Positions 7,264-59,052 of a stretch of 62,568 nt of DNA are shown one piece after another (the first letter of the stretch is position 1; the number at the start of each line of letters is the position of its first letter). The notes beneath the pieces were generated by a model that saw nothing but the letters and a program-made list of their open reading frames with translations, was not told the DNA's origin and did no database searches. The position numbers and the translations under genes were made by a program. Source of the DNA: Bordetella parapertussis (GTDB lineage: Bacteria > Pseudomonadota > Gammaproteobacteria > Burkholderiales > SG8-39); the NCBI GenBank assembly GCA_945897475.1, contig CAMDFL010000003.1:1-62568 (forward strand), in the 5' to 3' direction.

Positions 7264-8088
7264 ATGAATACCAATACACAAACCTCCCTGCTTCTGGAAA
7301 ACCGTGCCGCTCTGGTCACGGGAGGCGCAGGACGCCTTGGCCGCGTGATCGCCAACACCCTGCAAAGAGAAGGCGCCAAAGTGGTGATTGCCGATATCGA
7401 CCGCGCACGACTCACCGAAGTCACGGCAATGCTTTCGCAAAATGCCAAAGCCTGGTCGGTGCAGGGCGATGTCTCACAATTGCAGGAGGTACAGAAAATG
7501 GTGGCGCGCGCCGAATCGCTCGCCGGTCCCATCGATATTCTGGTGAATGCCCACGGAATTGTTCCGGTCAAAAATTTTCTGGATATGACACCCGATGAAT
7601 GGGACCGCCCATTCGCGGTCAACGTGCGCGGCATCATGCTCACCGGCCAGGTGTTCGCCAAGCGCTGGATCGAGCGCAAGTCGCGAGGCGCCATCGTAAA
7701 TATTTCGTCCTCGGCATCGCGCGCGGCGCGCCCGGGGCGCCCGCACTATGCCGCATCAAAAGCCGCGGTCAACATGCTTACCGAAGCCATGGCTATCGAG
7801 CTGGGACCGCACGGCATACGCGTCAACGCGGTGGCGCCGGCGACGGTGCTCGATGAAGTCTATCGCGGTCAAAGCGATGACAATCCCGCTTATGTCAATT
7901 TCACGATTCAAGGAACGCCGCTGGGACGCACCGGCGCGCCCGAGGACGTGGCCGAAGCGGTGGCATTTCTGGCCTCCGAGCGCTCCGATTGGACCACCGG
8001 TGTAATACTCGATGTCACCGGCGGTGCGCATGTCGCGCGGCGGCTATCGGCGCCTACCGATACACGCGCCAAACAGACGACGAAATAG
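7264..8088 (+). CDS. SDR-family oxidoreductase
   Basis: Uses the internal start MNTNTQ of ORF 7066..8088. Cofactor motif VTGGAGRLG and catalytic YAASKAA. Confidence 0.85.
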
Positions 8089-8153
8089 CAATGAGTTCGG
8101 GGATGCAATGAGTTCGAGGCTGCAATGAGTTCGAGGCTGCAATGAGTTCGAGT
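8088..8153. repeat. 17-bp tandem repeat x~4 (gcaatgagttcgaggct) starting at the last base of the SDR stop codon
   Basis: Copies at 8088-8104, 8105-8121, 8122-8138 and 8139-8153. Confidence 0.85.
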
Positions 8154-8204
8154 CTTTCTACGCTCGAGACCCTCTGCACCACACGCAAATAGCAGGAGGC
8201 ACAA

Positions 8205-9035
8205 ATGTCATTAAAGGGAAAAACACTTTTTGTGTCCGGCGGCTCACGCGGCATCGGTCTGGCGATAGCGCTGCGCGCTGCGCGCGACGGCGCCAATATC
8301 GCGATCGCGGCCAAAACCGTCGAAGCCAATCCGAAGCTTCCCGGCACCATTCATTCGGCGGCCGCCGAGATCGAGAAATCCGGCGGTCATGCCCTGGCAT
8401 TGCAATGCGACATCCGCGACGAAACCGCGATTGCCGAAGCGGTGCGAAAAACCGTGGCGCGATTCGGCGGCATCGACATCCTCGTCAACAACGCCAGCGC
8501 GATATCGCTCACCGGAACACTGGAGACGACGATGAAACGCGTCGACCTGATGTTCGACATCAATGTGCGCGGCACCTATGCGTGCTCGCAGGCCTGCCTG
8601 CCGCTCTTGAAACATGCCGCCGCTGCCGGACGCAATCCCCACATCCTGACTTTGTCGCCGCCCCTGAACATGAATCCGAAATGGTTCCGTCAGCACCTCG
8701 CCTATACGATCGCCAAATACGGCATGAGCCTATGTGTGCTGGGCATGGCAGAGGAGTTTCGGGCCGATGGCATCGCTGTCAATGCGCTATGGCCGCGCAC
8801 CATTATTCGCACCGCAGCGCTGGCGATGATTCCGGGAATCGATACCGACCGGGCACGCACGCCTGAAATCATGGCCGACGCGGCCCATGTCGTTCTCAAT
8901 CGCGAATCGCGCGAATGCACCGGCAATTTCTTCATTGACGACGAGGTTCTTGCCGCGGCCGGTTTCAGCGATTTGACCAAGTACGCAGTGGCCCCCGGCA
9001 AGGGAGAACCGATAAGCGATCTGTTTATCGATTGA
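8205..9035 (+). CDS. SDR-family oxidoreductase (HSDL2-like)
   Basis: MSLKGKTLFVSGGSRGIGLAIA cofactor motif and YTIAKYG catalytic motif. Confidence 0.9.
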   Translation: MSLKGKTLFVSGGSRGIGLAIALRAARDGANIAIAAKTVEANPKLPGTIHSAAAEIEKSGGHALALQCDIRDETAIAEAVRKTVARFGGIDILVNNASAISLTGTLETTMKRVDLMFDINVRGTYACSQACLPLLKHAAAAGRNPHILTLSPPLNMNPKWFRQHLAYTIAKYGMSLCVLGMAEEFRADGIAVNALWPRTIIRTAALAMIPGIDTDRARTPEIMADAAHVVLNRESRECTGNFFIDDEVLAAAGFSDLTKYAVAPGKGEPISDLFID

Positions 9036-9157
9036 TGCGCGCAGGTCCCCGCCATAAGCCGCGGGGAATAAGCAATTAAAGAAAATAGTTGATATAGATG
9101 ACCTATCCACCTATATCAATGGCAATAATTATTTCCAATATTGGGATACGTCATTCC

Positions 9158-9246
9158 CATGCAGCCGGCTGCGGGCTGCGTTCACCCATGCAGCCGGCTA
9201 CGCGCTGCGCTTACCTATGCAGCCGGCTGGGGCTTGCGTTCACCAC
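9158..9246. repeat. 29-30-bp tandem repeat x3 spanning the 3' end of hyuB
   Basis: Copies at 9158-9186, 9187-9216 and 9217-9246. The third copy encodes the HyuB C-terminus (RGERKPQPAA*). The other two lie just past the stop. Confidence 0.85.
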
Positions 9247-10990
9247 GCATCTTGTCGCGCAGATTCATGGTGGCTGCCTCATCCAGGCTCATGTCTTTCT
9301 TGAGCACCACGCCGTAGCTATCGCGCGCCGCATCTGCCGATACCAGTTCCTCGACCACGTCCCATTGAACCTTGGCTGCCTCTCGATCCAGCGGATCACC
9401 CCAGCCGCCGCCGCCGCCGGTGCGAACGATGACCTCAACGCCGACCTGAACCGGGTGGCGATTGGCATCGGGTTCAGTCCAGCCTTTAGCGCCTTTGTCG
9501 CGCATCAGATAGGCCGCGGTACCGCCTGACTCGCCGCCCCAAAGGCCCCACGGCGCACATTCGGTGCGCCCGGATTTGGCGAGATTCCAGCGGCCATCGA
9601 CAAAATTCTTCACCGTCACATCGATACCGAGGCCGCCACGGAATTTACCCGCTCCGCAGGAGTCGCGCCGCAGTTCGCGCCCGCTAATCATTACCGGGCA
9701 CTTGAGTTCGATGCCCTCAATGGAACCATTGCGAACGTCGCCCTGGCACACCGAAACCGTGCCGGATTCACCGTCTTCGGTTGGACGTCCGCCCCAACCG
9801 CCGCCTTCGATCGATTGCACCACGAAACGGCGATTGGTCTTGGGATCGACACCGAAGAACACCACCGCACCGCCCAGCAAGCCGTGATGTGCCGCGGGAA
9901 TCTTGTCCGGCATCGCAGGCGCCAGTGCTCGGATGATGGTGTCCACCACCGTCGGAATAATGGTGCTCCAGTTCGCCATGGGCGCGGGATAGCGCGCCAT
10001 CATGATGTTGCCCTCGGGAATAACTACGTTCAATGCGCGGAACGATCCTTCGTTCACCGGATCGAGCGGCCCGGTGATGGCTTTGTAGGCGACGCGAGCC
10101 CCTGCTAGCGAACGCGAATTGACGCCTGCCTTGCGCTCAGCCGAGCACTTCGACAAGTCGATGGTCATCTCGCCCTTATTGATGGTCACCTTGGCGTGCA
10201 GCGGCAATTTCACGCCGGTGAGAACGCCGTCGTCATCGAAAAACGAGGAGGCTTCGTATTCACCGTCCTTCAATTGAGAAATGACATTGCGACACTTGAT
10301 GTCGGTCTCATCGAAGATCTGCGCTATGCAGGCCATCACCGTGTCTTTACCGTACTTGGTGAAGAGGTCATCTAAACGTTTATTGCCGAGGCGACAAGAG
10401 GCCATCTGCGACTTCATGTCGCCCAGTGAACTCTCGGGAAAGCGGATGTTGTCCTTGATGATGCGAAACACCGGATCAACGAGCTTACTTTCCTCGTAGA
10501 CCTTGATCTGATCGAGTTGCAGGCCTTCCAGCCAGGGATCGACCACCTCGGCGCCGGCGCCAAAGCCGGTGCTGGTGCCGCCCACATCGATCCAGTGCGC
10601 GCGAACGATCGTAAACATCAACAATTCGCCACGGAAGAAATAGGGCATGTAAATCGCGATGTTATTCAGATGCTGCCCCGCCACCGCCTGGTGATTGGTA
10701 ATGACCACATCACCGGGCTTGAAGCCACTGGTTCCATAGCGTTTCATGCCATCGATAATCAACACGCCCAGGTCGGCCACGAAGTGCGACACGCCGCCGA
10801 CGTTCTGCGATACGAGGTCCCCGTTTGGCATGACCAGAGCGGTGCAGTAATCGCGTACCTCGTAGATCATCATGTTGTAGGAAGTGCGCTGCAGATCGGC
10901 GGCCATTTCGTTGGAGACCGCCGGCAGCGCATTGCGAATAACTTCCAGCGTTACCGGATCGAGCTTGGCATCCTTGACCTTGGCATCCAT
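9215..10990 (-). CDS. hydantoinase B / oxoprolinase family protein
   Basis: 591-aa ORF with HyuB-type N-terminus LDPVTLEVIRNAL..V..EM and a GGGGWGDP motif. Directly downstream of hyuA. Confidence 0.92.
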   Translation of the reverse strand: MDAKVKDAKLDPVTLEVIRNALPAVSNEMAADLQRTSYNMMIYEVRDYCTALVMPNGDLVSQNVGGVSHFVADLGVLIIDGMKRYGTSGFKPGDVVITNHQAVAGQHLNNIAIYMPYFFRGELLMFTIVRAHWIDVGGTSTGFGAGAEVVDPWLEGLQLDQIKVYEESKLVDPVFRIIKDNIRFPESSLGDMKSQMASCRLGNKRLDDLFTKYGKDTVMACIAQIFDETDIKCRNVISQLKDGEYEASSFFDDDGVLTGVKLPLHAKVTINKGEMTIDLSKCSAERKAGVNSRSLAGARVAYKAITGPLDPVNEGSFRALNVVIPEGNIMMARYPAPMANWSTIIPTVVDTIIRALAPAMPDKIPAAHHGLLGGAVVFFGVDPKTNRRFVVQSIEGGGWGGRPTEDGESGTVSVCQGDVRNGSIEGIELKCPVMISGRELRRDSCGAGKFRGGLGIDVTVKNFVDGRWNLAKSGRTECAPWGLWGGESGGTAAYLMRDKGAKGWTEPDANRHPVQVGVEVIVRTGGGGGWGDPLDREAAKVQWDVVEELVSADAARDSYGVVLKKDMSLDEAATMNLRDKMRGERKPQPAA

Positions 10991-10992
10991 AT

Positions 10993-17060: not shown

Positions 17061-17065
17061 GCCGA

Positions 17066-20284: not shown

Positions 20285-21937
20285 TTGGTGAATGCACAGC
20301 AAAACCTCTCGCGAAATGCCTGCGCGCTACTGATCGCGCTATTCGCATTGGCTTGGTTCTCGGCTCTGGACTATCGAAAACTCATCAAACCCGACGAAGG
20401 CCGCTATGCCGAGATCGCGCGTGAAATGGCGCAGTCCGGCGATTGGGTGACGCCGCGCCTGAACGGCATCAAGTATTTCGAAAAACCGCCGCTTCAATAC
20501 TGGGCGACCGCCGCAGCGTTTCGCGTGTTCGGAGAAAACGAATGGACCGCCCGCCTCTGGAGCGGACTCACTGGATTTGCCGGCGTAGTTCTCGCGGCAG
20601 TCACCGCGTCACGGCTTTTTGGCCCCCCCGCCGCCATGCTGACCGCGATCGTACTTGCCGGCAGTCTTTGGTGGGTGTTGATGGGCCACCTGAACACCCT
20701 GGACATGGGCTTCGCATTTTTTTTGCAAGCTTCGCTGGCGGGATTTCTTTTGGGCCAGACCTCACAACAAGGCAGCATCAGCGAACGCAATGCGATGCTT
20801 GCCGCCTGGGCGGCGGCGGCGCTCGCAGTATTGAGCAAAGGTCTTGCGGGCCTGATTCTGCCTGGAATGGTCCTTGTCGCCTATTGCCTGGTACAGCGCG
20901 AATGGATCATCTTTCGACGCTTGCATCTCCTGGGCGGCCTGGCGATATTCCTCGGCCTCACCGCCCCCTGGTTCATTGCGGTACAAATGGCCAATCCCGA
21001 ATTTGCCCGGTTCTTTTTTATCCACGAACATTTGGACCGATTTACCAGCACCACCCATGGCCGCACCCAGCCAGTGTGGTATTTCGTTCCCATTGTGGTG
21101 CTCGCGATGATGCCCTGGACAGGCATTGCCCTGCATGCCTGCGCCCGCGCGTGGCGCGCGCAATCCGAACCAGGCTTCAACGCGCGTCGTTTTTTGCTGT
21201 TATGGGTGGCGCTTATTTTCATTTTCTTTTCTGCGTCCGGATCGAAACTTCCCTCCTATATTCTGCCGCTGCTGCCAGCTTTGGCGCTGCTTTGCGGCGA
21301 CTGGCTGACCCGTGCCACGCCACGCGCATTGAGCTGGCACACCGTTTCGATAGCCGTGCTCGCGCTCGTCGCGATCCTGGTGATTCCGGCCTTGGGCAAG
21401 AATGCCAGCGGCGAAGCGCCGGGTGAAATGCTCGCGCAGTACGCGCAATGGCTGATGATCTCGATGTCGCTAATGCTCGCGGGTTTGCTGCTGGCGTTTT
21501 GGCTATTGCGTGGGCAACAAAAAATCTCAGCTATCGTCGCCATGGGATTCGCAGCGCTGCTCTCCTGGGAAATCGCGCTGCAAGGCCATGAGACGCTTGG
21601 CAGATCGAACTCCGCGTATTACATTGCCGCGCAGGTCAAGCCCTTGCTGCGCCCCGGCGTGCCGTTCTACAGCGTGGGCACCTACGAGCAGACCCTGCCC
21701 TTTTATCTGGACCGAACCGTGACCCTGGTTGAGTACCGCGATGAATTCAGCTATGGCCTGGATCAGGAGCCGGACCTGGCCATTGCCGACATACAGACAT
21801 TCAAGTCGCGCTGGATCGACGACAAGGAAGCCTTCGCGATGATGTCCCCAGATGGCTTCCGGCTGCTTGCCTCCCAAGGATTTGCTATGCGCGAAGTGGC
21901 GCGGGATTCGCGACGCATTATTGTGAGCAAACCATGA
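20285..21937 (+). CDS. arnT: 4-amino-4-deoxy-L-arabinose (L-Ara4N) transferase ArnT-like glycosyltransferase
   Basis: Polytopic 550-aa protein. PDEGRYAEIAREM and KYFEKPPLQYW motifs of the ArnT/PMT-type GT-C family. Heads the arn cluster. Confidence 0.85.
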   Translation: MVNAQQNLSRNACALLIALFALAWFSALDYRKLIKPDEGRYAEIAREMAQSGDWVTPRLNGIKYFEKPPLQYWATAAAFRVFGENEWTARLWSGLTGFAGVVLAAVTASRLFGPPAAMLTAIVLAGSLWWVLMGHLNTLDMGFAFFLQASLAGFLLGQTSQQGSISERNAMLAAWAAAALAVLSKGLAGLILPGMVLVAYCLVQREWIIFRRLHLLGGLAIFLGLTAPWFIAVQMANPEFARFFFIHEHLDRFTSTTHGRTQPVWYFVPIVVLAMMPWTGIALHACARAWRAQSEPGFNARRFLLLWVALIFIFFSASGSKLPSYILPLLPALALLCGDWLTRATPRALSWHTVSIAVLALVAILVIPALGKNASGEAPGEMLAQYAQWLMISMSLMLAGLLLAFWLLRGQQKISAIVAMGFAALLSWEIALQGHETLGRSNSAYYIAAQVKPLLRPGVPFYSVGTYEQTLPFYLDRTVTLVEYRDEFSYGLDQEPDLAIADIQTFKSRWIDDKEAFAMMSPDGFRLLASQGFAMREVARDSRRIIVSKP

Positions 21938-21982
21938 GCAGCGTGAGCAACCTATGAGCAGCTTGAGCAACCCATGAACACT
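21923..21982. repeat. 20-bp tandem repeat x3 across the arnT stop and arnE-like start
   Basis: gtgagcaaaccatgagcagc / gtgagcaacctatgagcagc / ttgagcaacccatgaacact. The arnT TGA (21935-21937) sits in copy 1 and the downstream ATG (21974) in copy 3. Confidence 0.85.
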
Positions 21983-40002: not shown

Positions 40003-40038
40003 GGGGTGTCGTTGGGGTGCGGGTGTCGTTGGGGATGC
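40003..40038. repeat. 18-bp tandem repeat x2 (ggggtgtcgttggggtgc)
   Basis: Read directly in the intergenic region 39850-40090. Confidence 0.7.
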
Positions 40039-40090
40039 GCTTTGCCCCCGTCCGTGGCAACATGCCGTCTCTTCAAATCGGGAGCCTCAC

Positions 40091-41071
40091 ATGTTCGGCA
40101 ATTCCACCAAATCCAGTCTCTTAGGCGCAGCCGCATTGCTGGCGGCGACCACGCAAAACGCCGTGGCGCAGGCCTATCCGGTCAAACCCGTGCGACTGAT
40201 CGTTCCAGCCGCAGCGGGTGGGCCCACCGACATTCCGGGTCGCATCATCGGTGACGCGTTGGACAAATCCATGGGGCAACGATTTCTGGTGGAAAACCGT
40301 TCTGGCGCAGGTGGCATGATAGGCGCGGATGCGGTGGCGCGCTCCGAACCCAACGGCTACACCCTGCTATACGCGAACACCAGCGTGCTGGCGGTCAACC
40401 CGGCGCTCTACAAAAACATCTCCTACGATGCGACCAAGGCATTCACCTATGTCGGTTTCGTCTCCAGCTCCCCCCAGGTGCTGGTGACCAACCCAAAAAT
40501 GCCCTTCAAGACTTTTCCGGAAATGCTGACTTACGCGAAAGCGAACCCCAGCAAAATCAATTTCGCCAGCGGCGGCATTGGCACCTTGCCCCACCTCACG
40601 TTTGAATTGCTGCAGCTCGAAACCGGAACGAAATCCACACTCATCAACTACAACGGTGGCGGACCGGCACTGGTGGCGGTGGTGGCCGGTCAGTCGGACA
40701 TGTTATTCGACCTGTTGAGCGCACGAGTGCGAAGCGGCGACGTTCGCGCGATTGCGGTAACCGGGCCCAGCCGGCTGAAGGAAATTCCAGACGTTCCCAC
40801 CATGACGGAGCTTGGACTGCCTAATCTGACGACCACCTCTGGGACCGGAATCGTCGCGCCCGCCGGCGTGTCGCGGGACATTGTCATCGCCTTGAATACG
40901 CGCCTCAATCAGGCGCTTGCCGATCCCGTAATACAAGGCAAGATGCAGGGGCTGGGCCTGACGCCGCGCAGCGGCCCGCCTTCGGATTTCGAAGCCTGGG
41001 CCACCGATCAACGACAAAAATGGATACGCGTGGTCAAGGACGCCAACGTCACGCCAAGCCCCGTCAATTAG
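40091..41071 (+). CDS. Bug-family (TctC-like) substrate-binding protein
   Basis: Uses the internal start MFGNSTKSS of ORF 39848..41071 with GGAG upstream. AQAYPVKPVRLIVPAAAGGPTD motif. Confidence 0.9.
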   Translation: MFGNSTKSSLLGAAALLAATTQNAVAQAYPVKPVRLIVPAAAGGPTDIPGRIIGDALDKSMGQRFLVENRSGAGGMIGADAVARSEPNGYTLLYANTSVLAVNPALYKNISYDATKAFTYVGFVSSSPQVLVTNPKMPFKTFPEMLTYAKANPSKINFASGGIGTLPHLTFELLQLETGTKSTLINYNGGGPALVAVVAGQSDMLFDLLSARVRSGDVRAIAVTGPSRLKEIPDVPTMTELGLPNLTTTSGTGIVAPAGVSRDIVIALNTRLNQALADPVIQGKMQGLGLTPRSGPPSDFEAWATDQRQKWIRVVKDANVTPSPVN

Positions 41072-41128
41072 ATCGCTCTGACACTTACTAGATCGCTCTG
41101 ACACTTGCTAGATCGCTCTGACACCAAT
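41069..41128. repeat. 20-bp tandem repeat x3, each copy beginning with the TAG of the Bug gene stop
   Basis: tagatcgctctgacacttac / tagatcgctctgacacttgc / tagatcgctctgacaccaat. Confidence 0.9.
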
Positions 41129-41160
41129 TAGCGGCGTCTCTTTTTGACAAACATCGGCTG

Positions 41161-41216
41161 TGGCCGCATGCAAGTGGCCGCATGCAATTGACCGCATGCA
41201 ATTGACCGCAATAAAC
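41161..41216. repeat. 14-bp tandem repeat x~4 (tggccgcatgcaag)
   Basis: Copies at 41161-41174, 41175-41188 and 41189-41202, with a partial copy at 41203-41216. Confidence 0.85.
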
Positions 41217-41230: not shown

Positions 41231-42232
41231 ATGACAATTCGCGAATTCACCTCAACAGCGCTGACCCACAGATTTATTTTTCCGACATTAACCGCACTTG
41301 CAATCGGCCTCACCCCCCCCGCTTCGGCGCAGGAGTGGCCGGCAAAGCCAATCCGGGTTGTCATTCCCTTCGCGGCAGGCAGCGTCTCGGAAGCCATCTT
41401 TCGCGTCATGTCGCCAGCCATCGAAGGGCGCCTTGGCCAGCGCTTCGTGGTCGAGAGCAAGCCCGGCGCCGATGGGCATATCGGTGTGGGCGAAGTGATC
41501 CGCTCGGCCGCCGATGGCTACACCCTGCTGCTGGCGCCGACCGCGAATTTCGCCGTCACGCCCCATATGTTCAAAAACCTGGGCTTCGATCCGCTCACCG
41601 CGCTCGATCCAATATCGCTACTCGCCGATGCGCCGTTGCTCGCGGTGACTGGCACCAATGTCCCCTCGCGCAATCTCAAGGAATTGGTGGAATACGTTCG
41701 CGCCGCCCCCGGCAAATACAACTACGGCTCACCGGGTTCGGGCTCGCCCGCGCATCTAGCCGGCGCGGCTTTCTCGCAAATGACCGGAAACGCCATGGTG
41801 TACGTGCCCTACAAAGGCACGGTGCCAATGGTTACAGCGATGCTCGCCGGCGACGTGCAGGTGAGCTTCCCCACTCTCACGGGAATCATCGGTCAATTAA
41901 AAGCTGGGAAGCTTCGCGCCATCGCAGTCCTATCGCGCCAACGAATGTCCGAGGTGCCCGATGTACCAACCTCCGCAGAATCCGGTTTTCCGCAATTCAC
42001 CGGCAGCAATTGGTGGGTGCTGGCAGCGCCACGCGGCACTCAGGGTCGTATCATTGATCGCCTGTTCAGCGAATTTAAAACCTCGCTCGCAGAACCTGAT
42101 GTCAAGAAACGCGTCGCCGACCTCGGGCACGTCACCATTGGTTACTCTCCCGCGGAAACCACGGCATTCTTGAAGACCGAGTCGGCGCGATATAAAACTA
42201 TCGTTGAAATCGGCAAAATAAGCGCGGATTAA
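41231..42232 (+). CDS. Bug-family (TctC-like) substrate-binding protein
   Basis: Signal peptide followed by AQEWPAKPIRVVIPFAAGS motif. Confidence 0.9.
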   Translation: MTIREFTSTALTHRFIFPTLTALAIGLTPPASAQEWPAKPIRVVIPFAAGSVSEAIFRVMSPAIEGRLGQRFVVESKPGADGHIGVGEVIRSAADGYTLLLAPTANFAVTPHMFKNLGFDPLTALDPISLLADAPLLAVTGTNVPSRNLKELVEYVRAAPGKYNYGSPGSGSPAHLAGAAFSQMTGNAMVYVPYKGTVPMVTAMLAGDVQVSFPTLTGIIGQLKAGKLRAIAVLSRQRMSEVPDVPTSAESGFPQFTGSNWWVLAAPRGTQGRIIDRLFSEFKTSLAEPDVKKRVADLGHVTIGYSPAETTAFLKTESARYKTIVEIGKISAD

Positions 42233-42259: not shown

Positions 42260-43252
42260 ATGACCAAGGCAGGATTCAACATGTCTTTTACAAAGTTATT
42301 AATTGTTTCCGCAATGTTGCTGATTGGGACAGCCCCGTCTGCCAACGCTCAAGAGTGGCCGGCCAAACCCATCCGCGTGGTAATCCCCAACACCCCCGGT
42401 GGCGTAGCGGAGGTCATCTTCCGCGCCATGTCCGCTGGCGTCGAGACCCGACTGGGGCAGCGGTTCTTCATCGACAACAAGCCGGGTGCCGACGGCGCGA
42501 TCGGTAGTGCCGACGTGGCGCGCGCAGCCCCGGACGGCTATACGCTTTTGCTCGCGCCCACAGCGAACCACGCCGTGCTGCAACACATGTATAAAAATCT
42601 CAGCTTTGATCCGATCACCTCCTTCGAGCACATTGGTCTCCTGGTCGAGGCGCCACTGATTCTCACGGTGAGTGCCAACCTTCCTTCGCGCAGCATGAAG
42701 GAATTCATTGAATTCATACGAGCCAACCCCGGCAAATACAATTACGGCTCACCTGGATCAGGTTCACCCGCGCACCTCACCATGGCGCAAATTTCGCAAT
42801 CCACCGGAGATTCCATGGTCTACGTGCCCTTCAAGGGCACCGCACCGCTGGCTTTATCGATGCTTGCAGGCGACGTGCATGCCTCCACATTTTCACTGGT
42901 TGCGGTACATGGCCATTTGAAGGCTGGTAAGTTGCGCGCACTCGCCGTTACCTCCAAACAGCGCATGGCCGATATTCCTGATGTGCCCACAACCGCGGAA
43001 TCAGGGTTTCCGCAATATTCGGGAACCAACTGGTGGGTCGTATCCGCGCCGCGTGGAACCAGCACGCGCATCGTCGATCGGCTGTGGTCGGAGTTTCGCA
43101 GTTCACTATCCGACACCGAGGTGCAAAAACGCATTCTTGCCACCGGGCACGTACCCATCCCCGCAGGCCCGGCCGACACCGTGTCATTCATCCGCGCGGA
43201 AGCTGCGCGATACAAGAAAATCGTTGACGACGGCAAGATCACGGCGCAATAA
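42260..43252 (+). CDS. Bug-family (TctC-like) substrate-binding protein, tandem paralogue of 41231..42232
   Basis: AQEWPAKPIRVVIPNTPGG motif. Roughly 60% identical by eye to its neighbour. An alternative start at 42281 has an AGGA upstream. Confidence 0.9.
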   Translation: MTKAGFNMSFTKLLIVSAMLLIGTAPSANAQEWPAKPIRVVIPNTPGGVAEVIFRAMSAGVETRLGQRFFIDNKPGADGAIGSADVARAAPDGYTLLLAPTANHAVLQHMYKNLSFDPITSFEHIGLLVEAPLILTVSANLPSRSMKEFIEFIRANPGKYNYGSPGSGSPAHLTMAQISQSTGDSMVYVPFKGTAPLALSMLAGDVHASTFSLVAVHGHLKAGKLRALAVTSKQRMADIPDVPTTAESGFPQYSGTNWWVVSAPRGTSTRIVDRLWSEFRSSLSDTEVQKRILATGHVPIPAGPADTVSFIRAEAARYKKIVDDGKITAQ

Positions 43253-43295
43253 AATATGCACCAGAAATTGCAGGTATCGCAAAGCCGTACGTGAC

Positions 43296-43412
43296 GCTTC
43301 GATTGGCCCGAGAACGGCTCGATTGGTCGGCGTGCGGCGCTTCGATTGGCCGCGCACGGCGCTTCGATTGGCCGCGCACGGCGCTTCGATTAGTCCGCGC
43401 GCGTAGCGCTTC
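43296..43412. repeat. 22-23-bp tandem repeat x~5 (gcttcgattggccgcgcacggc)
   Basis: Two perfect copies at 43339-43360 and 43361-43382, flanked by degenerate copies. Confidence 0.9.
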
Positions 43413-49976: not shown

Positions 49977-49977
49977 C

Positions 49978-50943
49978 ATGTCGCGCTCAACGCCTGGTTT
50001 GAAAATTGCCGCAATCGCGTTGGCCGCCAGCGGCGCCGCGTTTGCGCAATCCGGCTATCCCGATAAACCGGTGCGCTTGGTAATAGGTTTCGCCGCCGGC
50101 GGCCCCACCGATCTGCCCGGCCGCTTCATCGCGGATAAGCTTGGCGCCGCGCTGGGACAGCGCGTGGTGGTGGAGAACAAGCCGGGCGCCGGTGGCCAGA
50201 TCGCGACGCTTGATGTGCTGTCGCGCCCGCGCGATGGCTACACAATTCTGCTTTGCACCCACTTCGAATCGATCAACGCTGCAATCTACAAAAAGATCGC
50301 ATACAAACTCGCCGATGTCGCGCCTATCAGCCAGATATCTCGCTATTACTATGGCATCGCGATGTCGAACGAGGTGCCCGCGCGCGATTGGGACGCCTTC
50401 GTTCCCTATGCAAAGGCCAATCCCGGAAAGCTCAATTACGGCATGGTGGGGCGCGGCTCGGCCCAGGAAATCATGGCGCTCGAAATGGGCAAGATGAGCG
50501 GCATCAATACCACCGGCATTCCTTACAAGAACGGCACCGATATCCTCAATGACCTGATTTCCGGGCGCATTCATTTGTACGTCGCGCCGACGCTCGCGGT
50601 CATGTCGCAGTACAAGGGAGGGAAGCTCAAAATTCTCGCCATCTCCAGCAACGAACGGCTCGCGGTGGCGCCCGAGATCCCGACCCTGGCCGAGAAAGGT
50701 CTGCCCTTTGTGCGTTTCGGTTGGCTGGGCGTGTGCGCCGGCTCGGGCACACCGCCCGCCATCATCGCGTTATTAAACCGCCAGGTCGCGACAACGGTGA
50801 AATCACTTGAGTATCGGGAGATGATCGAAAAGGCAGGCTCGATTCCGATATCAACGACGCCGGAGGAGCTGGGCAAGATATTGACCGAAACCTACGAGCA
50901 GACGATCGCGATCACCAGGGAATTCGGATTGCAACTGGATTGA
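49978..50943 (+). CDS. Bug-family (TctC-like) substrate-binding protein
   Basis: Signal peptide followed by AQSGYPDKPVRLVIGFAAGGPTD motif. Confidence 0.9.
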   Translation: MSRSTPGLKIAAIALAASGAAFAQSGYPDKPVRLVIGFAAGGPTDLPGRFIADKLGAALGQRVVVENKPGAGGQIATLDVLSRPRDGYTILLCTHFESINAAIYKKIAYKLADVAPISQISRYYYGIAMSNEVPARDWDAFVPYAKANPGKLNYGMVGRGSAQEIMALEMGKMSGINTTGIPYKNGTDILNDLISGRIHLYVAPTLAVMSQYKGGKLKILAISSNERLAVAPEIPTLAEKGLPFVRFGWLGVCAGSGTPPAIIALLNRQVATTVKSLEYREMIEKAGSIPISTTPEELGKILTETYEQTIAITREFGLQLD

Positions 50944-51020
50944 TCGGCGCCGATTGAATCGAGCCACATTGTCCGGAAAAAAGCGCGGCGTCCGCCGCGC
51001 AGCCGGTTTTTGATCCCCGT

Positions 51021-51379: not shown

Positions 51380-52831
51380 ATGACGCAAAACAATTTTCGA
51401 GTCGTGGTGGCCGGGGCGGGCATCGGTGGCCTGCTCATGGCCGAGAAGCTGAAACGCGCCGGTATCGATTTCACGGTCTACGAAAAAGCCGATGAAGTCG
51501 GCGGGACGTGGCGTGACAACACCTATCCTGGCCTGTTCGTCGACCTGCCCTCACGGCAGTATGAGTTTTCGTTTCGACCGAATTATGATTGGACGCGCAA
51601 GTTCGCCACCGGCCCGGAGATCCAGACCTATATCAAGCGCGTGGCGCGCGAGCGCGGTCTGCGCGAACACATCCGCTTCGGCGCCGAAATTGTGGAGGCA
51701 AGGTTCGAGAATTCGCGCTGGCACCTGCGCACTGCCCGCGGCGACACCGATGTCGCGGACGCATTCATTTGCGCGACCGGATTCCTGCATACGCCAATCA
51801 CGCCCGACATTGAAGGACGCGACAGTTTTGCCGGGCCTTCGTTTCATTCGGCGCGCTGGGATCATGGCGTGCCAATCGCTGGAAAACGCTGGGGAATCAT
51901 CGGCGGCGGCGCCAGCGGCGTGCAGATCACCGAAGCTCTCGCCTTTAGCGATTGCGAGGTGACGCAGTTTATCCGCCGCGCGCACTGGATTCAGATTCGC
52001 GACAATCCACGTTCTACCTGGCTTGATCGCTTGAAGGTACGACTGCCCTTCGCCTACCGGAGGATCCAGAAAAAACTCTGGGATGACTACAGCGTGTACG
52101 ACTCCTGGCGCTTGAAGCCGGGTGAGCGGCGCGAGGCGATGGAACGCGAATTTCGCGGTTTTCTTGACGTCATCAAGGATGATGAACTTCGCCGCAAACT
52201 CACGCCAACCTACCACCTGGGCTGCACCCGCATCCCCAAATCGGACAACTACTACCAGGCGGTACAGCGGCCTAACGTGCATATCGAAACCAAGCGCATC
52301 GAAAAAATCGTACCCAGCGGCGTTCAGCTCTCCGATGGCACACTCAAAGAATTAGATGTTCTGGTGTTTGCCACAGGGTTCGATGCGCACGGCTATATGC
52401 GCCCGATGCAGGTGATCGGACGCAATGGCGTCACCATTGACCAGGTCTGGCGCGAGCGGATTTTTTCCTATCGCGGCGTCGCGCTTCCGGAGTTTCCCAA
52501 TCTATTCATGCTCTATGGACCGTTCAGCCCACTCAACAATGTGGCGGTGCCCCTGGGAATGGAGCAGGAAATCGATTACATCCTGCGTCTGCTCGCCATG
52601 GCGCGCAAACGCAATGCGGTGGTCATGCCCACCGCTACCGCGACCGAGCGGTTTGTACAGCGCATGCACGCGGCCTTGCCGGGAACCGTCTGGGTCGGTT
52701 GCAGAAACTGGTATTCAGACCAGCAGGACACGCCTATCCTTTGGCCATTGCCGCAGGATGACCACACCTCGCTCCTGTCTGACATCGCCATCGAGGACAT
52801 GCAATTCATTCCCATCGAGGATGCTGACTGA
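51380..52831 (+). CDS. flavin-containing / Baeyer-Villiger-type monooxygenase
   Basis: FAD motif VVVAGAGIGG, GGTWRDNTYPG, the BVMO/FMO fingerprint FAGPSFHSARWD, and a second Rossmann motif IIGGGASG. Confidence 0.88.
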   Translation: MTQNNFRVVVAGAGIGGLLMAEKLKRAGIDFTVYEKADEVGGTWRDNTYPGLFVDLPSRQYEFSFRPNYDWTRKFATGPEIQTYIKRVARERGLREHIRFGAEIVEARFENSRWHLRTARGDTDVADAFICATGFLHTPITPDIEGRDSFAGPSFHSARWDHGVPIAGKRWGIIGGGASGVQITEALAFSDCEVTQFIRRAHWIQIRDNPRSTWLDRLKVRLPFAYRRIQKKLWDDYSVYDSWRLKPGERREAMEREFRGFLDVIKDDELRRKLTPTYHLGCTRIPKSDNYYQAVQRPNVHIETKRIEKIVPSGVQLSDGTLKELDVLVFATGFDAHGYMRPMQVIGRNGVTIDQVWRERIFSYRGVALPEFPNLFMLYGPFSPLNNVAVPLGMEQEIDYILRLLAMARKRNAVVMPTATATERFVQRMHAALPGTVWVGCRNWYSDQQDTPILWPLPQDDHTSLLSDIAIEDMQFIPIEDAD

Positions 52832-52910
52832 GCATGATGTCGCCTGAGCATGGTTGACTAAGTTAATGGACTAAGTCAGAATAATCATCGTCATTGCTAG
52901 GGGTGATTCC

Positions 52911-53138: not shown

Positions 53139-53521
53139 AGCTTCTGCTGGACACGCACGCACTGCTGTGGTGGTGGAAAGACGATGAACGCCTCTCGAAA
53201 CGCGCCGCAAATGCCATCGCCGATGAGAACAATACCGTGCTCGTCAGCGCGGCGAGCGCCTGGGAAATCGCGACCAAACATCGCATAGGCAAGCTGCCTG
53301 GGGCCGAAAGTGCGATCCGTGAATTTAATGAACTCATCCTCGCCGATGGCTTTAACCACCTCGCCGTCTCATACCACCATGCCCTTATGGCGGGTGGATT
53401 CGACATCAAGCATCGCGACCCCTTCGACCGGATGCTGGCGGCGCAAACCCTTATCGAGGCAGCGACACTGGTTACCAGCGACGCCACAATGAAATTGTTT
53501 CGCGTCAAGTGTTTCTGGTAG
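53135..53521 (+). CDS. vapC: PIN-domain toxin VapC
   Basis: MKLLLDTHALLWW, SAASAWEI and LVTSDA PIN acidic-residue pattern. TTG start. Confidence 0.88.
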   Translation: MKLLLDTHALLWWWKDDERLSKRAANAIADENNTVLVSAASAWEIATKHRIGKLPGAESAIREFNELILADGFNHLAVSYHHALMAGGFDIKHRDPFDRMLAAQTLIEAATLVTSDATMKLFRVKCFW

Positions 53522-53689
53522 AGGGCGAGCACGGCTGCTAAGCATTGATCCAAATCGCACGTGGGAACGCGCCACTTCCACACACGCCAACCCGCTCTTG
53601 CCCGAGCACGCCAAGAATCACCCCAAGGTGTAGATTGCAAGCCAGTGCCCCCCACAACTCCGCCCCACAACTTATTACGGAGAAATGCG

Positions 53690-54316: not shown

Positions 54317-54392
54317 TAGCCGGGACTGAGCGTACTCTTGCCTTTGCGGTGTACTCTCATTTTGTCTTTTCCAATATCAATCACTCAAGTCG

Positions 54393-55112
54393 ATGGGAGA
54401 AATCATGGCATTGATCTCGACACGCAGGTATTGCGCCATCCTTGCTGCGACATCTGCAATATTCTGGCTCGCACCCCAAGCCGCGCTTGCCCAGGCGCTT
54501 GCCCATGACTACCCGAATCGAGATATCCATTTCATCTGCGCATTTCCCGCAGGCAGCGGCGCCGATGTGCTGGTGCGGCATTTCGCCGAAAAGCTCCGCC
54601 CCATCATCAACCGCGCCGTGATCGTGGAGAACCGCGCTGGCGCTGACGGCAATATCGCCACCGAATACGTGGCGCGCGCAAAACCGGACGGCTACACCAT
54701 CTATGTGCATGGCGCCAGCGGCCTCGCGGCAAACATGCATCTGTTCAAAAAACCGCCAGTGGATGTGGCCAAAGCAATCCAGGTCGCCGGCACCATCAAC
54801 GTTCAGCCCTTCATGTTGAATGTCAGCGCCAAGAGCCCCTACCAGAACGTCGGCGAGATCTACAAAGCGCTCACTGGCATTCAGGCGATCGAGGTGAGTT
54901 ACCGCACCGGCGCCGATTCCTTAAACGAACTCTCCAGCGGCAAGCTCGACTACGCCATGCTCGATGCTGATTAAATCGATCCAGGACTGGGGCACATACG
55001 TGAAGATGGCAAAGATTGTGCCGCAGTAATGCAGCCTATCTCTGTCTGGCGAAGGTGTACTCGTAATTTTCCCGATCTGCACGGCAATGAGCTCGAAATC
55101 CGTGCGTACTGA
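54393..55112 (+). pseudogene. decayed Bug-family gene (internal deletion, premature stop, frameshifted tail)
   Basis: ORF 54393..54974 has a normal Bug N-half (ENRAGADG, DGYT). It lacks the ~35-aa PGK..YGS.G.GS segment and stops at 54974. The Bug-like sequence continues in the +2 frame (LGHIREDGK..AAV....FPDL) to 55112. Confidence 0.6.
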
Positions 55113-55161
55113 GCTTGCCGAAGGCAAGATGCTCTATGGAGAAAGCTTACGCCGACCCCAT

Positions 55162-57207
55162 TTATTCGGCCTCCTCAGCCGGTTTGTGGGCGGCGCTAAG
55201 GCGGTGCTGCAACTGTGCCGGGGTCGGCTCGTAATGGCTGAAATCCAGCGTATAGGCGCCTTCGCCCGAGGTCAGCGATTTCAGCCGTGCCGCAAAGTTC
55301 TCCAATTCAGACAAAGGCACCTGCGCCGAGATGCGGCTCACGCCGGGGCGTATCAGGTCAGTGCCGCGCAGGTGTGCACGGCGCGCAGTGAGGTCTCCGC
55401 TGACATCGCCGATGCGCGCCTCAGGAACCATTACTTCGATACTCACTACGGGCTCGAGGATCATCGGGCGCGCCTTCGAGAGCGCGTCGATGAACGCCTT
55501 GCGGCCCGCCGAGACAAACGCGATTTCCTTGGAATCAACCGGGTGGTGTTTGCCATCGAAGACTGCGACGCGCAGATCCTGGATCGGATAGCCGGCGAAG
55601 TAGCCCGATTCGAGCACGACGCGCACGCCCTTCTCCACCGCAGATATGAACACCGATGGAATCGCACCGCCCTTGACCTCGTCGACGAATTCGAATCCGC
55701 CGCCGCGCGGCAGCGGCTCGACGCGGAGAGACACTTCGCCGAACTGGCCAGCGCCACCCGACTGTTTTTTGTGGCGCGCATGGCCCTGTGCCTTTGCCGC
55801 AATGGTCTCGCGAAACGGGATGCTCGGCGGGCGCGTGTCGACCTCCAGCTTGTGCTGCGTGGCCATGCGATCGAGCAGCGTCTTCAGATGCAGCTCGCCC
55901 AGGCCGCGGATGACGGTTTCGTTCGCCTGCGGGTCGCGCTCGACGCGAAAGCACGGATCCTCGGCAAGGAAGCGGCGCAGCACGTCCGATAGTTTCTGCT
56001 CATCGCCGCGTTTTTTGGGAAGCAGCGTCAGCCCGAATACCGACGCCGGCAAATCCAGCGGCTGTGCATGGATATGGGCATCGTCCGCGGCGTCATGCAA
56101 CACCTGATGGAAGCGCAGTTCCTCGACCTTACTCACCGCGCAGATGTCCCCAGGCAGCGCCTCATCGAGCGCGAATTGTTGCTTACCGCGCAACAACCAC
56201 AGGTGCCCGGGCTTGAAGGGCTTGCGGCCGTCGCCGGCATACAGTTGCATATTGGGCGTCACACGCCCCTGATGAACGCGGAATACGCCGACGCGACCGA
56301 TGAATGGGTCGATCTCCACCTTGAACACATGCGCCAGCACGTGCCGTCCCGGATCGGGAACTGCATCGAGTGTGGCGCTCACTGCGCCCGCGGTACTCAC
56401 ATAGTGCGGCGGATTGCCTTCTGTCGGGTTGGGCAGCAGGCGCACGATAATCCGCAAAAGTTCGGCCACACCCGCGCCAGTCGAAGCCGAGGTGAACACC
56501 ACTGGGATGAGATGGCCCTCGCGGAGCGCACGCTCGAAGGGCTGGTGCAGTTGCTCAGGCGCAATCTCCCCTTGTTCCAGGTACAGCGCCATTAACTTCT
56601 CATCCATCTCCACCACTTGATCGACCAATTCCCGGTGCGCCTGTTCCACCGAGGAGAAATCCGACTCGCCGCCGGGGGAGAAAAAACAGTCCGCGACACG
56701 CGTCGCCCCGCCCGCTGGCAGATTAATCGGCAGGCATTCGCGACCAAATACCTCGCGAATACGCTCGAGCAGTGCGGGGAGATCGACATGTTCGGCATCG
56801 ATGCGATTGACCACGATGATCCGGTCAAGGCCCATTTGTTCGGCCCATCGCATCATCCGATGCGTCATCAACTCAATGCCGTTCTGCGCGTTGATGACAA
56901 TCGCCGCAGTCTCGACCGCGCTCAACGCAGGCAGCGCATGGCCGACAAAATCGGGATAGCCGGGCGTATCCAAGAGATGTATCCGGGTATCCTCGGCCTC
57001 GAATGTCGCCACTGCAAGTTTGATCGAATGGCGCAATTGATGTTCAAGGGGCAGGTAATCGCACACGGTGGTGCCTTGCTCGACACTGCCCGCTGCCGGA
57101 ATCGCCCCGGCGGCCGCGAGCAAGGCCTCGGCCAGGCTGGTCTTGCCGCTTCCCGCCTGCCCCACCAGCGCGAGAGTACGGATGTTTCTGATGGAAACTT
57201 TTCTCAT
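55162..57207 (-). CDS. divergent elongation factor G paralogue (EF-G-like GTPase)
   Basis: 681 aa with full five-domain length. G1 is GQAGSGKTS, G3 is DTPGYPDF (His replaced by Tyr) and G4 is NRID (instead of NKxD). Confidence 0.85.
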   Translation of the reverse strand: MRKVSIRNIRTLALVGQAGSGKTSLAEALLAAAGAIPAAGSVEQGTTVCDYLPLEHQLRHSIKLAVATFEAEDTRIHLLDTPGYPDFVGHALPALSAVETAAIVINAQNGIELMTHRMMRWAEQMGLDRIIVVNRIDAEHVDLPALLERIREVFGRECLPINLPAGGATRVADCFFSPGGESDFSSVEQAHRELVDQVVEMDEKLMALYLEQGEIAPEQLHQPFERALREGHLIPVVFTSASTGAGVAELLRIIVRLLPNPTEGNPPHYVSTAGAVSATLDAVPDPGRHVLAHVFKVEIDPFIGRVGVFRVHQGRVTPNMQLYAGDGRKPFKPGHLWLLRGKQQFALDEALPGDICAVSKVEELRFHQVLHDAADDAHIHAQPLDLPASVFGLTLLPKKRGDEQKLSDVLRRFLAEDPCFRVERDPQANETVIRGLGELHLKTLLDRMATQHKLEVDTRPPSIPFRETIAAKAQGHARHKKQSGGAGQFGEVSLRVEPLPRGGGFEFVDEVKGGAIPSVFISAVEKGVRVVLESGYFAGYPIQDLRVAVFDGKHHPVDSKEIAFVSAGRKAFIDALSKARPMILEPVVSIEVMVPEARIGDVSGDLTARRAHLRGTDLIRPGVSRISAQVPLSELENFAARLKSLTSGEGAYTLDFSHYEPTPAQLQHRLSAAHKPAEEAE

Positions 57208-57450
57208 CGATGCACTCCCCTGACGATGTCCAATCTGGGCGCCGGTGCGTTCAATTTAGGCCATGCCGTCCACGAGTGCAATCTCCCATTGCAAATAAAG
57301 AGGCGCCAAAGATGCGGGCGGGAGCATTCAGCCGCAATTGGCCCGTGCCTGTAAGATCTTGTGTCAGACGAATTCGAGCCGAGTACCCTCGTGCCTCCTT
57401 GCCTTCAGCACGTGGCCATTGTCGTGAACCCTCACCAACGGAGTTCTTAA

Positions 57451-58440
57451 ATGCGCCTTGCCAAGCCTAATGCAGCATCGAAGTTGAGTTTGACCCTCGC
57501 AGCCTTGGCTGCGGTCATTGCGTGGACTTCCCCGGCCGCCGCGCAATCCTGGCCGGTCAAACCGATCAAACTGGTGCAAGGATTCGCCGCCGGCGGCAAC
57601 GGCGACATCATTGCGCGCCTGGTGGCGCAAAACATTACCGGGCCTCTGGGCCAAGCGCTGGTGGTGGAGGGTCGCACCGGCGGGGGTGGAAACCTTGCCG
57701 CGGATTTCGTCGCCAAATCGCCAGCCGATGGCTACACCCTCATTTTGCTCACCGGTGGGCATGCGGTTTCGGCGGCCATCTACCGGCAATTACCATTCGA
57801 TCCCATTGATGATTTCTCAATGGTTTCGCTGGTGTCGCAGTTTGCGTTCGTGGTTGCCACCGCGCCGGACTCTCCCTTGAAAAGCATGGCCGACGTGATC
57901 ACCCTATCGAAAAAAATGCCCGGTTCGCTCTCGTTTAGTTCGGCGGGCACCGGCACCACCCAGCATCTTGCCGGTGAACTGTTCAAATCCGCAGCCGGCA
58001 TCGACATGATTCATGTGCCCTATCGTGGTGGCTTGGCGCCGGTCACCGATGTCATGGCGGGACGGGTGAGCATGATGTTTGAGACCTTCACACCAACGCT
58101 GCCGCAAATCCGGGCCGGAAAATTGCGTGCGCTTGGCGTTACCTCGATGGGACGATCGAGCATTCTTCCTGATCTTGCCCCGGTCGCTGAAACGGTAGCC
58201 AACTTCGAGGTCACTTCATGGATGGGAATTGCCGCGCCCGCGAAACTCCCCGGCCCGATATTGGATCGCCTCAACCGGGAAATGTTGCGTGCCATTGCAT
58301 CGCCCGAGGCTCGCGAACGTCTCACTGGCCTGGGCGCAGACCCACGCTCCAGCTCACCCGCCGAAATGCGCGCCCATGTAGCGACGGAAATTGACAAATG
58401 GAAGCGTGTAGTCGAAATGGCCAAAATCGAGCGGCAGTAA
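57451..58440 (+). CDS. Bug-family (TctC-like) substrate-binding protein
   Basis: Signal peptide followed by AQSWPVKPIKLVQGFAAGGNGD motif. Confidence 0.9.
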   Translation: MRLAKPNAASKLSLTLAALAAVIAWTSPAAAQSWPVKPIKLVQGFAAGGNGDIIARLVAQNITGPLGQALVVEGRTGGGGNLAADFVAKSPADGYTLILLTGGHAVSAAIYRQLPFDPIDDFSMVSLVSQFAFVVATAPDSPLKSMADVITLSKKMPGSLSFSSAGTGTTQHLAGELFKSAAGIDMIHVPYRGGLAPVTDVMAGRVSMMFETFTPTLPQIRAGKLRALGVTSMGRSSILPDLAPVAETVANFEVTSWMGIAAPAKLPGPILDRLNREMLRAIASPEARERLTGLGADPRSSSPAEMRAHVATEIDKWKRVVEMAKIERQ

Positions 58441-58555
58441 AGATAGGACCATCCACGCTCACACCGCCAGACGCCTTAAAATGAATGGCACTTACTGAAA
58501 GGTTTTGGCTCGTCCCCTCGCTGTTGCGAGCTGCTTACTGAAGATCGTTTTTTTT

Positions 58556-58627
58556 CGCGCGGATGGCTTCATCATCCGCGCGAAAGCGACAATCCGCACG
58601 AACGGATTTTTCGTTCGTGCAGGCTTT
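58556..58627. repeat. ~70-bp structured dispersed repeat, copy B
   Basis: Stems at 58556-58565/58573-58582 and 58596-58604/58612-58620. Homologous to 29688-29758. Confidence 0.75.
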
Positions 58628-58672
58628 GGCAGCGCTGCCGCGGGCAGGATTCAAATTTGCAAGACGCAGCAG

Positions 58673-58981
58673 TCAATGCAAGCGATAAGGTTCCATGGCG
58701 AGAGAAGCCACCTCGCCACCCATCATGACAATGGTCCCCGCACGGCGACTCTCGCCGTTATCGGTAAATTCAAAACGGTACACCCGGCGCAGCACCACGC
58801 GCCCTTGGTCGTTGCGCGATAGCCGCAGCGAAACACATTCCACCGTTTGATCGAGAAACTGAAGCCCGCTTCTCTCGCAGGCGAGCGGCCCCACGGCAAG
58901 CGCGCGTTCGCGCACCTTAAGGCTATCGAACCAGAACCAGACGAGCGCGGCGAATGCGAGAAGAACAGCGATTTCGGACAT
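58673..58981 (-). CDS. DUF3301-family protein
   Basis: 102 aa. N-terminal TM helix followed by the RERAL......C...GLQ.LD..V pattern, as recalled for DUF3301. Confidence 0.7.
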   Translation of the reverse strand: MSEIAVLLAFAALVWFWFDSLKVRERALAVGPLACERSGLQFLDQTVECVSLRLSRNDQGRVVLRRVYRFEFTDNGESRRAGTIVMMGGEVASLAMEPYRLH

Positions 58982-59012
58982 GGCCCCTGCTTATTCGCGG
59001 CTTGCCTGCCCT

Positions 59013-59052
59013 AATAAATATCAGAGCGGTTGATAAAGTATCAGAGCGGTCT
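59013..59052. repeat. 20-bp tandem repeat x2 (..taaatatcagagcggt..) abutting the ppk2 stop
   Basis: tatcagagcggt at 59019-59030 and 59039-59050. The ppk2 stop is at 59051-59053. Confidence 0.75.

Follow-up and report, generated by a model that had tools for sequence, protein, structure and literature searches.

Short tandem arrays in the intergenic spacers of a Burkholderiales genome: a probable superposition of a species-wide duplication load and two dispersed 20-nt families

The DNA analysed here, referred to as the window, is the whole of contig CAMDFL010000003.1 (62,568 bp; our C3) of a metagenome-assembled genome (MAG) of the Burkholderiales (GCA_945897475.1, lineage SG8-39; our G000). 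Among the genes of the window are mutS, genes for SDR proteins, hyuB, arnT and arnE, a BVMO gene, ppk2 and several Bug-type genes, and the subject of this study is the short tandem arrays that lie between them and at their ends. A first-pass annotation of the window, made from the letters alone, had noticed that short tandem repeats recur at gene ends, often including the stop codon, and had taken them for the signature of a process. Our analysis indicates that two things are probably superimposed in this genome: a tandem-duplication load that extends over the whole species, and two dispersed families of ~20-nt units, called A and B below. The tie to the stop codon belongs to family A and not to the arrays in general.

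The MAG is a short-read assembly of 4.6 Mb in 296 contigs, with a G+C content of 57.9% and a completeness of 92%. Gene calling relied on a 3-periodic Markov model that was trained on the genome itself and gave 4,147 genes and a coding fraction of 84%; the spacers are typically short, at ~150 bp. Arrays were collected genome-wide with Tandem Repeats Finder (TRF) at periods of 10–40 bp and a score of at least 50, and the arrays listed earlier for the window were checked with a reporting limit of at least 30. Nine of the 12 listed arrays were reported by TRF at essentially the positions first given, with periods of 12–29 bp, and the one at 59013 was confirmed from its sequence, whereas those at 50938 and 52829 were not supported. 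The window is average for its genome in this respect, with 9 arrays seen and 10.4 expected from the genome-wide density. No Rfam family was matched anywhere in the window.

Several arrays touch a stop codon. After the first SDR gene, a 17-bp unit is repeated 3.8 times (8088–8152), beginning on the last base of the TAG stop (8086–8088); 2, 4 or 5 copies were found across 10 assemblies, and the spacer between the two SDR genes that holds the array is 117 bp long here as against 28–63 bp in congeners. At hyuB, on the minus strand, a 29-bp unit is present 3.1 times (9156–9244, TRF) and overlaps the stop: the copy at 9215–9244 consists of the last ~10 codons and the TGA stop, and the remaining copies lie downstream. 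Other assemblies have 1, 3 or 4 copies, the single copy being in L155. The hyuB unit carries the palindrome GCAGCCGGCTGC, and two units fold at −21 kcal/mol (z = −3.2); the duplicated segment may contain the terminator stem of the gene. The array at 21923–21977 (plus strand, 20 bp × 2.8) spans the arnT TGA and the arnE ATG and is a duplicated stop/start junction, with ATGA in every unit and a period of 2 mod 3 that yields a chain of 7-codon mini-open reading frames (mini-ORFs); assemblies with 2, 3 or 5 copies all keep the ATGA in each unit. The arrays are local copies of resident sequence, as the one-copy allele of hyuB and the junction copies of arnT/arnE demonstrate.

Two further arrays at stops belong to family A. 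The array at 41069–41124 (minus strand, TAGATCGCTCTGACACTTAC × 2.8, period 20 bp) is a diverged variant of the family, TAGATCGCTCTGACACTTAC being the reverse complement of the family unit; each unit begins with TAG, and the Bug gene at 40091–41071 terminates at the first of these TAGs. It is 20 bp shorter, 20 bp longer or 40 bp longer in other assemblies. At 59013–59053 (plus strand), below the TRF threshold, lie two family-A units of ~20 nt with an exact core at 59036–59053, whose last CTA is the TAG stop of ppk2 (minus strand, 59051–59938). Assemblies contain 2, 3 or 4 of these units, while congeners terminate ppk2 at the same codon and have no family-A unit there.

Among the other arrays of the window is that of a 22-bp unit present 4.8 times (43295–43400), which begins 42 bp past the TAA stop of the Bug gene at 42260–43252 and is 22 bp shorter in 7 assemblies. 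A 14-bp unit repeated 3.6 times (41160–41210) shares the spacer of the family-A array at 41069, upstream of the Bug gene at 41231, and has lost 14 bp in 7 assemblies; an exact-protein look-up with the product of that gene (41231–42229) gave no match. Upstream of the Bug gene starting at 40091, an array of 17–18 bp × 2.1 (40004–40039) was constant in length in the 6 assemblies that span it. The divergent spacer between a Bug/TctC gene (5875–6879, minus strand) and the first SDR gene holds 3.8 copies of a 13- to 14-bp unit (6970–7022), with two shorter alleles of 25 or 10 bp less in other assemblies. An array of 12–13 bp × 3.5 (7156–7198) precedes the SDR start at 7264, where the spacer measures 48, 60/61 or 71 nt elsewhere, corresponding to 1, 2 or 3 units.

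The last of these arrays touches the question of where the first SDR gene begins. Public calls alternate between 340 or 336 aa (start at 7066) and 274 aa (start at 7264). The array at 7156–7198 lies inside the frame of the long version and shifts by −12, +11 or +1 nt between strains, so that this frame cannot hold in every strain. The true start is likely to be 7264.

Two of the listed repeats are not supported as arrays. At the stop of a Bug gene (50938–50965) there are two 13- to 14-mers of ~70% similarity, and past the BVMO stop (52829–52876) two pairs of 8-mers; TRF reported neither at a score of at least 30. The sequence at 50938–50965 showed no length variation among strains, in assemblies whose alignment extends to 52203.

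The arrays vary among strains in the manner of variable-number tandem repeats (VNTRs), a behaviour for which the first-pass annotation had proposed a test. We compared 8–10 independent assemblies per region, retrieved by exact-protein look-up from ENA MEGAHIT assemblies of many samples, two NCBI MAGs and Logan contigs. These were 98.5–99.9% identical to the window or to contig C1, with a divergence from the window of 0.1–1.5% in single-nucleotide polymorphisms (SNPs). Thirteen of the 16 TRF arrays covered were polymorphic, as were those at 21923 and 59013. All insertions or deletions of at least 10 bp between strains fell inside TRF arrays except at one locus (57303), and nearly all amounted to a whole number of units; at C1:59488, two of the array's alleles are shorter and differ by whole units plus a longer piece. 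Family-A arrays on C1 ranged from 1 to 9 units among strains differing by less than 1%. One strain pair had 14 SNPs in 14 kb, yet 3 of 5 arrays differed, which indicates that change at an array locus is far faster than base change. Whole units are thus gained and lost between near-identical strains.

The exceptional locus (57284–57320) lies in the divergent spacer between an EF-G-like gene (55162–57207, minus strand) and a Bug gene. It is 11 bp shorter in most assemblies and carries a 98-bp insertion in L168.

Genome-wide, TRF found 766 arrays, of which 522 lie in spacers, 191 in genes and 53 across a boundary. The density is 718 per Mb in intergenic DNA versus 49 per Mb in coding DNA, and the bases covered amount to 4.1% and 0.3%, respectively. 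Arrays are present on 142 of the 153 contigs of at least 10 kb, and 17–33% of the spacers longer than 100 bp carry one. A shuffle control gave 0–2 arrays in each of three shuffles, compared with 511 in the real spacers. Periods peak at 20–21 bp, and the copies have diverged to a median match of 89%. The first-pass annotation had described the units as unrelated in sequence and read the arrays as the product of a process and not of one repeat family. Clustering bears this out for ~85–90% of the intergenic arrays, whose unit is unique to its own locus, and most arrays are locus-specific local duplications; the arrays at 41069 and 59013, two of the eight gene termini cited, both belong to family A.

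In genes, the period is a multiple of 3 in 162 of the 191 arrays (29 are not), against 190 of 522 in spacers. A case in point for change in coding DNA is C1:58577–58706, where in-frame arrays of 30 bp and 15 bp lie inside a YgjP-like gene (PF01863; compared in L187, L189 and L190). A difference of +15 bp between strains gives a protein of 289 or 294 aa, which shows that genic arrays change by multiples of 3.

The high load is a property of this species. Samples of 87–146 kb from each of four genomes of the same genus (453 kb pooled) contained 12–69 arrays per Mb, of which 0–21 per Mb had a period that is not a multiple of 3; the corresponding values for G000 are 166 and 86 per Mb. Pooled, the congeners had 17 arrays versus 75 expected at the G000 rate (P = 6e-16), and 6 versus 39 expected when only periods that are not multiples of 3 were counted (P = 8e-11). 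The load is therefore ~4–6 times that of the four congeners. Four further, more distant relatives were sampled at 100 kb each with identical TRF settings.

More than half of the high-identity arrays have a length within 10% of a whole number of units. Young arrays mostly comprise whole units, with 0–5 nt of identity in the flank. Among them, about one third end 0–1 nt past a whole unit number and about one fifth carry 3–5 extra nt, which is a weak test of microhomology. These end lengths fit slippage and do not discriminate between mechanisms.

Arrays as a whole have no preference for stop codons. Their density per kb is 0.79 in divergent, 0.75 in convergent and 0.90 in co-directional spacers. 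When each array was placed at random within its own spacer, 90.2 contacts with a stop were expected and 91 were observed; in convergent spacers, where both ends are exact, 28 were observed versus 30.1 expected. Contacts with a start, in contrast, numbered 48 versus 85.1 expected. Array coverage is 5–8% in the first 100 bp past stops, 2.5–5% in the 50 bp before starts and 6–7% further upstream, and 7.6% of stops have an array within 50 bp versus 5.8% of starts. Since the spacers are so short, geometry alone brings about one quarter of the arrays in stop-bordering spacers into contact with the stop, and the asymmetry between stops and starts arises because arrays are depleted in front of starts. 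The sole positional effect is thus avoidance of the region just before starts. The recurrence of arrays at gene ends holds as a description, and the details at the stops were confirmed in the sequence; near stops, however, tandem repeats show no excess over the remaining intergenic DNA, the outcome that the first-pass annotation had itself named as a refutation, and stop contacts are no more numerous than under random placement.

The dispersed families emerged as two large clusters among the 766 consensus units, and shuffled cores served as the control for their counts. In family A, copies of the core AAGTATCAGAGCGGTC are joined by a TAAT linker, with a period of 20–21 bp. With the 18-nt core and up to 3 mismatches, 215 units were counted at 102 loci; with a 16-nt core, 257 units at 135 loci, with 1–6 copies per locus, whereas shuffled cores gave 1–3 matches. 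Family B, with the unit TAGGTTGCTTATGCGCTTAT, is represented at 43 loci by 88 units. Copies of the family-A core number 168 in G000 and 15 in the congener G005, and none was found in 29 other relatives. Variants of family A are shared within a locus (for example on C102, C101 and C14), which implies that units multiply locally after seeding. On C110 (7880–7950), the TAG stop of a Bug-type gene carries a family-A array and, directly after it, a family-B array, so the two families land side by side at TAG sites.

Family A, unlike the arrays in general, is tied to the stop codon. It lies within 3 bp of a stop at 24 of the 75 loci in stop-bordering spacers, as against 7.8 expected, and half of these 24 share the exact junction gene-TAG-ACCGCTCTGATAC; other junctions read gene-TAA-GTATCAGAGC or gene-TAA-T-AAGTATC. 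Family arrays beside stops (20 loci) begin on the native stop or at most 4 bp after it, and congeners end the gene at the same codon in 19 of the 20, which shows that the gene is not cut short by the array. The orthologous gene ends of the congeners (42 sequences) contain no family-A or family-B core and are empty sites. Family-A arrays are bracketed on both sides by TAAT or TAR (TAA or TAG), and inserts of a single unit have TAG or TAA on either side (TAG...TAG or TAA...TAA; pieces 5, 16 and 18). In piece 18 the downstream spacer can be aligned with that of the congener G001, from which it differs by 17 nt inserted between two TAGs. The flanks resemble a target-site duplication, but they are equally the start of the next unit.

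The reverse comparison yielded three loci that are filled with family A in G005 and empty in G000; at one of them, TAATC occurs once in G000 and flanks the array on both sides in G005. Together with the sites filled only in G000, this indicates that insertions occurred in both lineages. Past the G005 orthologue of piece 13 (L263; G005:C82:3197–3407) there is also an AT-rich stretch with AAATAAGCGCAAAGGC, which resembles family B and fails the core test at up to 4 mismatches.

Family-A arrays have no larger element around them, as their flanks match only at neighbouring or duplicated loci. Family units are direct repeats on one strand and form no inverted doublets, the 20-nt unit has no terminal inverted repeats in its sequence, and neither family shows a hairpin: trimers of the units fold weakly (z of −3.3/−0.7 and +0.4) with an unpaired centroid. 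Two candidate mobilisers were considered and rejected as specific explanations of the dispersal, although either may still play a part. A RAYT-like Y1 transposase gene (C169:6951–7280) gives a weak Y1_Tnp match (43 bits), and similar genes are found in all five congeners, four of which have no family A. A group-II-intron-type reverse transcriptase (606 aa; C230:767–1459) likewise occurs in congeners without the families. An HVHLLL motif is present in the RAYT-like gene, which is preceded by a 22-bp array at a distance of ~60 bp.

We consider it probable that these observations have a twofold explanation. The species would duplicate, at an unusually high load, whatever sequence of 10–40 bp sits in its spacers, and the arrays would arise and change through replication slippage or unequal exchange. 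Selection may tolerate arrays anywhere in spacers except just before starts, and within genes only where the period is a multiple of 3, removing those that break reading frames or translation-initiation regions. A duplication that includes a stop or an ATGA overlap would be neutral, since the gene still terminates in the first copy, and ATGA-overlap duplications with a period of 2 mod 3 would survive with the flanking genes unchanged. Families A and B, for their part, may insert at TAA-, TAG- or TAAT-like sites, which in a genome of 58% GC are often stop codons. Once seeded, the family units would expand and contract like other arrays, those at 41069 and 59013 being of this kind.

Several points weigh against this twofold explanation. 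Slippage is a proposed mechanism, and a ready cause of the load was sought in vain: loss of repeat-stabilising genes was rejected, since MutS (window 3292–5874; Pfam), the Pol I 5′ nuclease, RecJ and XseA, the large subunit of ExoVII, are all present and score as in the congeners. The congener rates come from samples of each genome, and the copy numbers were read from assembled contigs. The Markov model places stops exactly and starts approximately; if starts were called too far downstream, part of the depletion in front of them may be an artefact. As to the families, the TAG or TAA of G000 corresponds to TGA in every congener at three loci (pieces 13, 16 and 24), which means that the element sometimes supplies the stop codon and that a simple TAR target site leaves these loci in need of an extra change. 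In addition, no fully empty family allele was seen within the species.

Other explanations of the arrays have to be set against these data. That assemblers working on de Bruijn graphs produced the arrays or their copy numbers is a natural suspicion with a short-read MAG in 296 contigs, but it is hardly credible here: the same arrays recur in more than 10 samples from three sources (ENA MEGAHIT, two NCBI MAGs and Logan), their copies are diverged (median match 89%), most are shorter than k = 141, and whole-unit differences between alleles go together with linked SNPs within the units. Recurrence in independent assemblies with whole-unit differences rules out an assembly artefact. A process coupled to the end of translation or transcription that creates duplications specifically at stops is very improbable as well. 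It would agree with a coverage in the first 50 bp that is 1.5–2 times higher after stops than before starts, with the difference between 7.6% of stops and 5.8% of starts, and with the enrichment of family A exactly on stops. However, the placement test found 91 contacts for 90.2 expected (28 for 30.1 in convergent spacers), divergent spacers, which have a start at either end, are equally dense at 0.79 per kb, depletion at starts fully accounts for the asymmetry, and the position of family A follows from its own TAA/TAG-like ends. The arrays might instead be selected regulatory devices, such as protein-binding arrays, translational-coupling relays or strain-specific tuners of expression. The peak of periods at 20–21 bp, which is two helical turns, the ATGA kept in each arnT/arnE unit at 2, 3 and 5 copies, the period of 2 mod 3 in five of the six arrays in contact with a stop as well as a start, and the 17–33% of longer spacers with an array would all suit such a role. 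We regard it as unlikely, given that ~500 different units share no common motif, that arrays are found in every spacer type and in either orientation, that copy number runs from 1 to 9 between strains differing by less than 1%, and that the corresponding genes of congeners have no arrays; the ATGA would also be kept if selection acted as a filter on random duplications.

For the families, the step that can be contested is insertion at TAR sites. They might have spread with no dedicated mobility, the nascent strand switching template through TAAT/TAR microhomology by ectopic template switching or gene conversion. The bracket is merely 3–5 nt (TAAT, TAR or TAATC), the empty ppk2 site in G001 reads ...TTTATTAGAG..., like a junction between units, there are no terminal inverted repeats, hairpin or larger element, and the RAYT-like and reverse transcriptase genes are not specific to genomes with family A. 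On the other hand, only two of ~500 unit types have spread, though all arrays would be equally good templates, and family A stands at different loci in a second species. This route is possible but we rather doubt it. Less likely still is a more far-reaching reading, in which families A and B would rank with the smallest known mobile DNA units, of ~17–20 nt and with no terminal inverted repeats, hairpin or linked gene. A trans-acting system, shared by two or more species of the genus, would place copies of them at TAAT/TAR sites, in many cases exactly on stops, and the same lineage-specific nicking, priming or template-switching activity would drive the genome-wide excess of locus-specific duplications.

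This study also provides insights of a more general kind. Closeness to stop codons can simply follow from geometry, and the placement analysis supplies a null model for similar observations. Here is a free-living species with a several-fold minisatellite load relative to its congeners although the tested repeat-stabilising genes are present, and comparisons within its genus offer a natural route to the factors that govern how often bacteria duplicate short tracts in tandem. For the dispersal of very small repeats, the 20-nt families are a tractable case: sister species provide occupied as well as unoccupied sites, and dozens of public metagenomes sample the same population. The arrays can also serve as strain markers for this uncultured lineage.

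The first-pass annotation had not met a description of stop-proximal minisatellites as a feature of bacterial genomes; the kind is known from the literature, as VNTRs or minisatellites, as mycobacterial interspersed repetitive units (MIRU) and as the tandem repeats of Borg elements. With VNTRs, as used in multiple-locus VNTR analysis (MLVA), the arrays share head-to-tail units of 10–40 bp, a mostly intergenic and locus-specific position and whole-unit steps between strains. Classical VNTR genomes have tens of such loci. In the 4.6 Mb of the genome studied here, in contrast, there are ~560 intergenic arrays, which occupy 4% of the spacer DNA, at 4–6 times the load of congeners. The locus-specific arrays are therefore VNTRs or minisatellites in every tested respect, and their density alone is unusual.

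The MIRU of Mycobacterium tuberculosis have units of 40–100 bp at 41 loci (Supply et al. 1997, as summarised in PMC2734929). The likeness lies in a dispersed, tandem, intergenic family that is polymorphic in copy number and sits between operon genes. At arnT/arnE (21923–21977) the arrangement is that of MIRU, in which the ends of small ORFs overlap the stop and start of the neighbouring genes, but this is not general among the arrays. The units here are shorter, at 12–30 bp, families A and B have ~20 nt at 43–135 loci, and the host belongs to a different phylum. MIRU form a single dispersed family at many intergenic loci; this holds for families A and B (102–135 and 43 loci), while most arrays here belong to no family.

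Borg elements, which are archaeal and extrachromosomal, have pervasive tandem repeats that are perfect and A-rich, about half of them in ORFs (PMC9879509). Common to both are many unrelated units on one replicon that are nearly absent from relatives, evolve fast and vary in copy number within populations, as well as periods that are multiples of 3 in genes (without exception in Borg elements, 162 of 191 here) and mostly not in intergenic DNA. The arrays described here differ in that their copies are diverged (median 89%), in being ~15 times denser per Mb in spacers, where ~70% of them lie, than in coding DNA, and in their place on a bacterial chromosome.

REP, BIME and REPIN sequences, with their RAYT transposases, are short extragenic repeats in hundreds of copies, often just past genes (PMC3116915). 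Families A and B are likewise short, extragenic, present in hundreds of copies and often just past genes, and a RAYT-like Y1 gene exists in the genome. Unlike REP sequences, they have no palindrome, hairpin or inverted doublets, they are arranged in direct tandem, and the RAYT-like gene is not specific to them. The families are not miniature inverted-repeat transposable elements (MITEs) either, as they lack terminal inverted repeats and have a 20-nt unit where MITEs usually exceed 50 bp. A CRISPR identity was rejected because the period equals the unit length, with no unique spacers between repeats.

The small dispersed repeats (likewise abbreviated SDR) that Elhai et al. reportedly described in 2008 from heterocystous cyanobacteria are said to have units of 21–27 nt and a conserved fold. 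Families A and B differ from them in that they have no conserved hairpin, are mainly tandem, are bracketed by TAAT, favour stops and reside in a betaproteobacterial host. They share with them a tiny unit (~20 nt here), the absence of a transposase and of coding capacity, and restriction to a lineage. In both cases, insertion is deduced from filled versus empty orthologous sites, here 20 loci filled in G000 and 3 filled in G005. Among the known systems, the cyanobacterial small dispersed repeats are the closest to families A and B.

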